5,045 nt of DNA from a virus (taxonomy: Duplodnaviria; Heunggongvirae; Uroviricota; Caudoviricetes): IMG/VR virus record IMGVR_UViG_2671180524_000020, one strand, 5' to 3'. Positions 310 through 1,367 of the stretch are shown in pieces. The notes beneath the pieces are model-generated. The model saw nothing but the letters and a program-made list of their open reading frames with translations. It ran no database searches and was not told the origin of the DNA. The translations under genes were made by a program, and so were the position numbers. Position 1 is the stretch's first letter; every line of letters begins with the position of its first letter.

Positions 310-1367
310 TTTCCGCCTCCTGCATCCCGTCCACGTTTGGCAGCCAGGGTCCAGCCTGATGAATGAGCTTCTCCGGGTTTATCACCGGTCATACTGTTGC
401 AGTGCCACAGCGAGCCCCCCCACGTCACCGTATCACCGGGGTGGTAGGTTTCACCGGCTCTGAACACACCGCGGTAGAGCATCACCGGCAGGGAAAATGT
501 TTTTTCCGTACGCTGGCCACTGCTCTGCCGGACCACCACAGNGAACNACCGNTCNCCNGTCATGCTGACGTCAATATCNGCCACCCCGTCAACCAGGCAT
601 TCCCATCCCCGCATCCCGTGCGTTTTTTCATACGCCCGCCAGAGTCCGCCCTGGTGTGTGGCATACGTGCCCCGGGGAAAGGATTTTTGATCGTCAATGG
701 CGGGGATTATTTCCAGTGCCGTGGCATCACGCCCGTCCTGCGGAGCCGGCAGGGCTCTCACCGCATCCAGAACAGCCTTCTGCAGAACATCGGGATCATA
801 GTCACGACCATCACGCGGAACAGGAATATGGCTTACCGCCTCTTTCACCATCTGTTCAAGCATCGGACGCACATCATCGGGGGTAATACTTTTGCCGTCC
901 GCCGGTACCGGAATATTCGCAACCGCATCATTCACCGCCTGCTTCAGTACTTCCGGATCATAATCACGACCGTCACGCGGAGCAGGGATATGGCTTACAG
1001 CCTCTTTCACCATCTGCTCAAGCATCGGACGCACATCATCGGGGGTGATACTTTTGCCGTCCGCCGGTACCGGAATATTCGCAACCGCATCATTCACCGC
1101 CTGCTGCAGTACATCCGGATCATAATCACGACCATCACGCGGTACCGGAATGGTCCCCACAGCGTCATCCACCATCGCCTGCAGAACCGGATGTACCTCA
1201 TCCACCGTCACATGCTTCTGTAATACCGCCGACAGGGAAGCCAGTTTCTCTTCAAACGCTTGTGCCTGCGCGGCCATCTTCCCCTCAAATGTGCGCTGTA
1301 AATCCGCCAGCACCGTGGAGAATTCTTCGCCCAGTGCACGAATAATGGACAGTTCCCGTTCCGTCAT
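306..1367 (-). CDS. Tandem-repeat virion-associated protein: N-terminal coiled-coil-like segment, about 7 copies of a ~27-aa repeat, C-terminal CBM5/12-like (chitin-binding type 3-like) motifs
   Basis: 353-codon uninterrupted ORF. Its ATG (1367..1365) overlaps the portal TGA (1366..1364) as ATGA, and its TGA (308..306) overlaps the next ATG. Central repeats are IPVPRDGRDYDPDVLQQAVNDAVAN alternating with IPVPADGKSITPDDVRPMLEQMVKEAVSH. The C-terminal segment FRAGETYHPGDTVTWGGSLWHCNSMTGDKPGEAHSSGW follows the pattern I recall for CBM5/12 domains, with a weaker second copy (GTYATHQGGLWRAYEKTHGMRGWECL). The domain assignment is from memory, not a search. Ambiguous bases at 542..579 lie inside this ORF. 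Confidence 0.75.
   Translation of the reverse strand: MTERELSIIRALGEEFSTVLADLQRTFEGKMAAQAQAFEEKLASLSAVLQKHVTVDEVHPVLQAMVDDAVGTIPVPRDGRDYDPDVLQQAVNDAVANIPVPADGKSITPDDVRPMLEQMVKEAVSHIPAPRDGRDYDPEVLKQAVNDAVANIPVPADGKSITPDDVRPMLEQMVKEAVSHIPVPRDGRDYDPDVLQKAVLDAVRALPAPQDGRDATALEIIPAIDDQKSFPRGTYATHQGGLWRAYEKTHGMRGWECLVDGVXDIDVSMXXXRXFXVVVRQSSGQRTEKTFSLPVMLYRGVFRAGETYHPGDTVTWGGSLWHCNSMTGDKPGEAHSSGWTLAAKRGRDAGGGK
542..579. other. Cluster of six ambiguous base calls (n) inside the repeat-protein gene
   Basis: Single n at 542, 547, 552, 555, 558 and 579, giving X residues in the translation between the two CBM-like motifs. The n at 579 is a wobble position (GCN = Ala). Confidence 0.9.
794..1200. repeat. 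In-frame tandem direct repeat, 162-bp unit, two near-identical copies plus a diverged partial third
   Basis: Unit 1 (794..955) and unit 2 (956..1117) align with about 9-10 mismatches in 162 bp; the ~80-bp segment catcggacgcacatcatcgggggt(a/g)atacttttgccgtccgccggtaccggaatattcgcaaccgcatcattcaccgcctgct is nearly identical in both. A third partial copy starts at 1118, and more diverged copies extend to about 740. 162 bp = 54 codons = two 27-aa protein sub-repeats. Confidence 0.85.

Follow-up and report, generated by a model that had tools for sequence, protein, structure and literature searches.

An in-frame, length-variable 162-bp repeat array in the gene following the portal gene of an enterohaemorrhagic Escherichia coli lambdoid prophage

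The 5,045-nucleotide stretch of IMG/VR virus record IMGVR_UViG_2671180524_000020 analysed here, called the window throughout, is a locus of the head module of a lambdoid, Shiga toxin (Stx)-type prophage of enterohaemorrhagic Escherichia coli (EHEC). All its long open reading frames (ORFs) lie on the minus strand. The subject of this analysis is an array of 162-bp tandem repeats found inside the gene that follows the HK97-type portal gene and encodes a polypeptide of 353 amino acids, hereafter the repeat protein (Table 1). The start of this gene overlaps the end of the portal gene in an ATGA, through which its translation is predicted to be coupled to that of the portal gene. Window DNA is 99.4% identical to prophages of the complete E. 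coli chromosomes E2855 and O111:H8 strain SF26 102-1, and 92-97% identical to many Stx1a-, Stx2a- and Stx2c-converting phages. Of the 5426 complete E. coli genomes, 1247 contain matches, at a median of 4 places per genome.

Comparison of the window with itself at a lag of 162 nt pairs positions 793-980 with 955-1142 at 178 of 188 nucleotides (94.7%), a match whose chance probability is about 3e-79 (binomial, p=0.3). The 88 nt from 856 to 943 hold a single mismatch at this lag, and 886-943 form an uninterrupted perfect match of 58 nt. Tandem Repeats Finder places the repeat at 775-1151 (period 162, 2.3 copies, 91% matches, 0 indels). A repeat search for in-register 162-nt copies finds, with 760-921 as reference, a second copy at 922-1083 (90%) and a decayed third one at 1084-1245 (62%). 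The array is in frame, its period amounting to 54 codons of the minus-strand ORF that runs from 1367 to 306, and the 9 nucleotide differences between units 1 and 2 correspond to 6 synonymous and 3 non-synonymous codon changes. The initial annotation had described in-frame 162-bp tandem repeats, about 94% identical and with a near-perfect core of about 80 bp, over positions 794-1200. The lag-162 profile, Tandem Repeats Finder and the codons bear out this description and the start of the span; its end does not hold, high identity stopping near 1142 with decay beyond. A search for promoter-like sites gave none, and the array holds no meaningful terminator. An antisense ORF of 286 amino acids running through the array on the plus strand (363..1223) belongs to no PHROG family and is interpreted as a shadow ORF of the minus-strand gene.

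The number of units differs between 74 full-length alleles of E. coli phages and prophages gathered from IMG/VR and GenBank. Complete 54-residue units number 0 in one allele, 1 in 3, 2 in 21, 3 in 41, 4 in 7 and 6 in one, the corresponding proteins having lengths of 245, 299, 353, 407, 461 and 569 amino acids. The 245-residue form is found in phage Lys8385Vzw, that of 353 residues in the window and in E2855, and the equivalent of the 407-residue form in SS17, while phages BP-4795 and 2851 carry 4 and 3 units, respectively. Since relatives carry 0 to 6 copies, the middle section of the protein changes length in 54-residue steps. In phages Stx2c_JNE121036 and Stx2c_2409 the flanks, about 4.5 kb on either side of the array, agree at 99.6-99.7%, and exactly one 162-bp unit separates the two.

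Unit identity is higher within alleles (mean 95.1%, median 96.3%) than between alleles (91.4%), and two 100%-identical units are present in 9 of 70 alleles. The allele-specific variants IPQPADGKSLT and IPVPADGKSIT follow the same rule: in most alleles the one or the other is found in every unit, and mosaics are few. This homogenisation within alleles is the signature of concerted evolution by unequal exchange or of recent re-expansion. Units of a length that is a multiple of three within an ORF, identity far above chance and whole-unit steps among close relatives are properties of a variable-number tandem repeat in a coding gene, and these three are found here. The whole-unit allele series, the Stx2c indel of one unit and the homogenised units support the earlier proposal that the array lends itself to expansion and contraction in 54-residue steps, and the alignment of homologues, which had been suggested as a check for copy-number variation, yielded the series of 0-6 units.

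Each 54-residue unit consists of two diverged modules of about 27 amino acids, A (YDPDVLQQAVNDAVANIPVPADGKSI) and B (TPDDVRPMLEQMVKEAVSHIPAPRDGRD), that share the pattern ..AV..IPxPxDG... The motif IPxPxDG occurs at residues 73, 98, 127, 152, 181 and 206 with a spacing alternating between 25 and 29, which gives six modules. The module region is strongly acidic (isoelectric point 4.3, net charge of about -15). An AlphaFold2 model built from 110 diverse homologues (mean predicted local distance difference test score, pLDDT, of 80) has a long N-terminal α-helix, presumed to be a coiled-coil or an anchoring segment. It is followed by module helices at residues 55-71, 84-96, 109-125, 138-150, 163-179 and 192-205, at pLDDT 50-75, and by a β domain at about residues 215-345 that is predicted very confidently (pLDDT of about 98).

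Several searches led to a tentative functional assignment of the last third of the β domain. The window protein scores 21.1 bits against Pfam CBM_5_12 (PF02839), under the gathering cut-off of 26.2; orthologue P0124 passes with 29.8 bits, and P0122 and P0164 reach about 24.7. A profile of the C-terminal domain matches the CBM5/12 structure 2rts with E=0.004. The domain thus tentatively bears a CBM5/12 module, glycan-binding-like in character. Foldseek against the viral models of BFVD retrieves phage proteins that combine collagen repeats with CBM5/12 or ChiC_BD domains; the sequence of the window protein itself has no runs of Gly-X-Y (GXY) triplets. No known repeat family was recovered for the 27-residue module, Pfam giving only sub-threshold noise (TetR_C_35, DUF4244) and a PDB sequence search no significant match. 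Many homologues carry the precomputed Pfam label PF28083.1, which may stand for a recently built family that includes this protein.

The repeat protein belongs to a large family. A HMMER scan of 1.84 billion representatives collects 5658 clusters (50% identity) at E<=1e-3, 633 of them below 1e-30. The best 150 of the 5658 have a median length near 400 amino acids with 1-7 matched stretches, and are mostly stand-alone proteins (about 240-690 residues) with their own Met and a helix at the start. Related loci were sought with an alignment of the C-terminal domain in contigs from one genome per species. An HK97-type portal gene is found directly upstream in 74 of the 80 loci, which come from Gamma-, Beta- and Alphaproteobacteria (Enterobacterales, Pseudomonas, Burkholderiales, Rhizobiales and Sphingomonadales), and the ATGA overlap between the portal and repeat genes is conserved across Enterobacterales.

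Orthologues of several genera have DNA arrays of their own (Table 1) in proteins that are only 40-70% identical to the window protein, the modules being conserved as protein across genera while the DNA differs. Near-identical arrays proper to such diverged orthologues reveal the module region as a hot spot where duplication and homogenisation recur, not as the site of a one-off event. Some distant members of the family (P0128, P0130, P0132, P0135, P0166 and P0184) extend past the C-terminal domain in two ways. The first type of extension has collagen-like GXY runs, present as short C-terminal tails; the second carries the motif SAYxxAxxxGFxGTxxxWLxSL, which matches PHROG families whose annotation is tail fibre or tail protein.

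Table 1. Features of the window and arrays of orthologous genes
Feature	Position	Strand	Basis or remarks
Prohead protease-major capsid fusion, 645 aa	4877..2940	(-)	Pfam Peptidase_S78 + Phage_capsid
73-aa ORF, PHROG 829	2895..2674	(-)	Overlaps portal gene start by ~55 nt
HK97-type portal gene, 454 aa	1364..2728	(-)	Pfam Phage_portal 3.5e-79
G5 homopolymer (C5 on + strand), near portal gene 3' end	1379..1383	(-)	
ATGA overlap, portal TGA stop / repeat gene ATG	1364-1367	(-)	Sequence
353-aa repeat-protein gene	306..1367	(-)	ORF list; PHROG 1289/2271 matches; 99.4% identical, equal length in E2855
N-terminal long α-helix, aa 3-50	1206..1367	(-)	AlphaFold2, pLDDT 90-96
Module region, aa 55-215, six ~27-aa helix-loop modules	723..1205	(-)	Motif positions, AlphaFold2 helices
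High-identity part of 162-bp array	793..1142	(-)	~2.2 copies, 94.7%; lag-162 profile, Tandem Repeats Finder, repeat search
Unit 1, aa 82-135 (module A + module B)	963..1124	(-)	Codon-level dissection
Unit 2, aa 136-189	801..962	(-)	Codon-level dissection
Conserved C-terminal β domain, aa 216-353	309..722	(-)	
Putative CBM5/12-like last third of β domain, ~aa 297-345	333-479	(-)	
Start of head-tail adaptor gene	downstream of repeat gene	(-)	ORF list, family matches
50-N scaffold-gap placeholder in head-tail adaptor gene	201..250	.	Equals 112 nt in E2855
Orthologue array, Pantoea			162 bp x3.0, 96%
Orthologue array, Pseudomonas			162 bp x2.8, 93%
Orthologue array, Caballeronia			162 bp x4.8, 88%; 92% at 324-bp period
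Orthologue array, Phytobacter			174/279 bp, 95-98%
Orthologue array, Erwinia			132 bp, 94%
Orthologue array, Paraburkholderia			99 bp x10.5

The other genes of the window follow an unusual head-module layout with a protease-capsid fusion encoded before the portal. The order terminase, protease-capsid, small ORF, portal, repeat protein and adaptor is the same in BP-4795, 2851 and Salmonella phage FSL SP-016. The small ORF of 73 codons (2674-2895) is kept at the same place in E2855, SS17, BP-4795 and Lys8385Vzw. A terminator-like hairpin, GAACCGCTGCGGCGGTTT followed by the T-run TTTTATTTT, is found upstream of the protease-capsid gene (4899-4916, minus strand) and falls, judged by E2855, in the spacer between the terminase and capsid genes. 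The window does not exceed shuffled sequences in its total of terminator-like sites.

The portal and repeat genes are joined in some E. coli loci. A G6 instead of the G5 tract found near the 3' end of the portal gene puts both ORFs in one frame, creating a fused ORF of 859-861 codons. Among 76 E. coli loci, 49 have G5 (split) and 27 have G6 (fused), across all copy-number classes. Isolated phages hold both states, BP-4795 and FSL SP-016 being split and 2851 fused, and SS17 is fused as well. Beyond the E. coli clade no G tract is present, while the two genes stay separate and keep their ATGA overlap. Independent fusions to the portal are found in distant relatives (P0257, 1237 amino acids; Pantoea L111, 1248 amino acids), and these argue for a physical association of the repeat protein with the portal.

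We privilege, as the probable explanation of these data, a coding array in a portal-coupled gene, reshuffled by recombination or slippage, that forms part of a tripartite portal-associated protein. Tandem repeats whose length varies in frame are familiar from bacterial surface proteins and phage fibrous proteins. The units of the array would undergo unequal homologous recombination with one another or replication slippage; this would reshuffle the array repeatedly, with gain and loss of units, and because of this proposed reshuffling the copies would stay near-identical. RecA-dependent exchange in E. coli generally needs about 25-30 nt of identity, and lambdoid phages encode recombinases of their own. 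The identical tracts of 58-88 nt would provide ample homology for either process. Its outcome would be the 0-6-unit length polymorphism of E. coli phages and the independently regenerated arrays of other genera.

The acidic module region could then be a spacer of adjustable length, separating a helical anchor docked at the portal vertex or close to it from a glycan-binding tip; the repeat protein would be a fibre-like accessory component of the portal vertex or neck. We favour, with low confidence, such an external or vertex fibre-like protein. An external location is suggested by the CBM5/12-like tip and by the collagen-like tails and tail-fibre motifs of relatives. The initial annotation placed the repeats inside a structural gene, and the genomic setting agrees, the gene belonging to the head module and standing between the portal and head-tail adaptor genes. 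The stalk mentioned in that annotation is what a model of medium confidence suggests.

Several points weigh against this reading. The mutual packing of the modules, and with it the shape of a stalk, is predicted with low confidence (pLDDT 50-75). The variation is seen in differences between aligned alleles and not within one lineage, and the Stx2c pair could differ through recombination with another resident prophage and not through slippage inside the array. Portal C-termini normally point into the capsid. Fused alleles that look viable, such as the one of phage 2851, therefore speak against an external fibre, except if the internal ATG continues to yield the free protein. Literature searches found no virion proteomics or structure for any member of the family, and full-text searches no paper describing the repeat protein, its repeats or its presence in virions.

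It is possible, if somewhat unlikely, that the repeat protein instead resides inside the head, tethered to the crown of the portal, and perhaps leaves with the DNA on ejection, which would bring its CBM5/12-like domain into contact with peptidoglycan. In that case the repeats would determine how long an internal acidic stalk is, in loose analogy to the P22 portal barrel or the portal-bound SPP1 gp7/Mu F-type proteins. Portal-adjacent internal proteins are a known class, and the position of the gene directly after the portal gene, its coupling to it, the recurrent and apparently tolerated fusions to the portal C-terminus and the strong acidity of the module region all suit this possibility. However, Pfam, PHROGs and NCBIfam reveal no similarity to MuF/SPP1 gp7 or to ejection proteins, the tip of the protein and the tails and motifs of its relatives are features of external fibres, and the covalently fused form would not be ejectable without cleavage.

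Decidedly unlikely is the explanation that the true gene codes for a single portal protein of about 860 amino acids with a repeat-bearing C-terminal extension, the G5 form of the window being a frameshifted, decaying pseudogene. It finds support in the annotation of related loci and in the occurrence of the fused form in 27 of 76 loci, including isolated phage 2851 and SS17. The Prokaryotic Genome Annotation Pipeline (PGAP) calls the identical split arrangement of E2855 'phage portal protein, frameshifted'. Some GenBank records of Stx phages have 'portal protein (pseudogene)' at this position, and elsewhere the gene is labelled 'phage portal protein' or 'hypothetical'. PHROG 2271 (859 positions), in which portal and repeat protein are fused, and PHROG 1289, which holds the stand-alone form, both go by the name 'portal protein'; this label, in PHROGs as at NCBI, originates from the fused alleles. 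TIGR01537 (portal_HK97) matches the fused orthologue of SS17. The 353-residue ORF gives no match to Phage_portal (Pfam PF04860) and none in NCBIfam, the portal domain being entirely in the upstream ORF 1364-2728; by this test of the portal domain its product is not a portal protein.

The downstream ORF is, moreover, intact and under coding constraint (6 synonymous against 3 non-synonymous changes between units), the split state is the commoner one in E. coli (49 of 76 loci), and stand-alone proteins with their own Met and helix dominate the best 150 of the 5658 family representatives. The separate gene is conserved, with its ATGA overlap, in other genera that have no G tract, and BP-4795 and FSL SP-016 are split. 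It follows that the separate gene is the ancestral, normal state and, therefore, that the gene in the window is not a pseudogene.

The quality of the window raises the question of an assembly artefact. The sequence is of draft quality, with 50 N at 201-250 and six single n's at 542-579, and draft contigs often end in the array. Thirteen of the 15 listed members of the 90% cluster of the protein are fragments that start inside the array and run to the natural C-terminus, one of them recorded on 63 contigs, which indicates that draft contigs break there. These partial proteins (P0273-P0285) come from draft E. coli assemblies and correspond to window positions ~790-1130. Matches to a 'partial portal' start at scattered positions of the portal gene and are most likely due to multi-copy prophages, not to breaks in the array. 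P0156 and P0225 are ORFs that run from the N-terminus of the repeat protein into out-of-frame sequence. The tail of P0156 is the antisense strand of the protease-capsid gene (window ~4497-4799, plus-strand ORF, joined to ~1000-1367). These chimeras result either from misassembly at the array or from a real inversion or rearrangement.

The initial annotation's warning about short-read assembly is supported by the 13 of 15 cluster members that break inside the array. Its suggestion that the nearby gap and ambiguous bases hint at a collapsed count is not: both lie outside the array, the gap about 540 nt away in the next gene and the n's within the conserved C-terminal domain. The same two-unit gene (1062 nt, 99.4% identity) is found in the complete chromosomes of E2855 and O111:H8 SF26 102-1. 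The exact two-unit protein of E2855, whose chromosome is the closest complete match to the window, is 353 amino acids long and is recorded on 438 contigs, including the 5.47-Mb complete E2855 chromosome, which renders the copy number of the window credible. The separately deposited BP-4795 (4 units) and 2851 (3 units) also carry the array, and the 9 differences between units suffice for placing reads of at least 100 nt. An array or copy number created by draft assembly, through collapse or duplication, is thus very improbable.

Programmed ribosomal frameshifting at the junction, in which the G5 tract or the A-AAA-TGA overlap would give both the portal and a fusion whose length is tuned by the repeats, was rejected as extremely unlikely: both frame states do occur in nature and slipping by -1 on GGG or AAA would bring the frames together, but the site is not conserved, the G tract being found only in the E. 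coli clade, the ATGA overlap reading as ordinary translational coupling and the base before AAA varying (acc-aaA-TGA, aac-ccA-TGA) with no slippery heptamer conserved across orthologues.

Recombination or slippage in a portal-coupled coding array, the explanation that we prefer, is an ordinary mechanism of variation; the gene in which it would operate is abundant, mis-annotated and medically adjacent through the Stx phages. This very common prophage gene owes the wrong labels 'portal protein', 'frameshifted portal pseudogene' or 'gp6-like connector' purely to its neighbours, and since it is conserved as a separate gene, such labels should be corrected. The array genuinely varies in length in Stx1a, Stx2a and Stx2c phages and other EHEC prophages, and short-read contigs break at it. 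Its size could be used as a marker to separate near-identical co-resident prophages, and draft assemblies are not to be trusted there. A conserved partner of the portal with a variable spacer and a carbohydrate-binding-like tip is a tractable candidate for a virion component in medically relevant phages. It is quite unlikely, at present, that these proteins represent an undescribed class of portal-vertex accessories, widespread in HK97-type prophages of Proteobacteria, with a reach tuned by array recombination and, in the Stx-type phages of E. coli, an attachment toggled by the mutable G5/G6 tract between a free, translationally coupled form and one covalently fused to the portal C-terminus. 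If true, this would be a two-layer variation system, of length and of linkage, for a virion component with a glycan-binding tip.

Systems with related features include the portal-binding minor head proteins SPP1 gp7 and Mu gpF (PF04233) and C-terminal extensions of the portal such as the P22 barrel. The gene of the repeat protein likewise comes just after the portal gene, and the occasional fusion of the repeat protein to the portal implies a physical association. However, Pfam and PHROGs reveal no sequence or profile similarity to gp7 or gpF, with no match of the 353-residue ORF to the MuF domain (PF04233), and the window protein has a wholly different architecture of acidic helix-loop repeats and a β domain. 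Relative to the CBM5/12 modules of PF02839 (PDB 2rts, 2d49 and 1aiw), the module of the window protein sits in a larger β domain of about 135 residues that has no structural match.

The alpha C/Rib family of group B Streptococcus likewise has near-identical in-frame units of tens of residues, whose copy number differs between close relatives as units are deleted or duplicated and which are homogenised within an allele. Its units, however, are Ig-like and part of a bacterial surface antigen, whereas those described here are helix-loop modules encoded by a gene of a phage head module. Phage fibrous proteins, such as the tail fibres of prophages with their collagen-like repeats and T4 fibritin with its segmented coiled coil, differ from the window protein, which has no GXY collagen repeat and whose gene adjoins the portal gene and not the tail-fibre region, but they share with it the combination of an anchor, a variable repeat spacer and a C-terminal binding domain.

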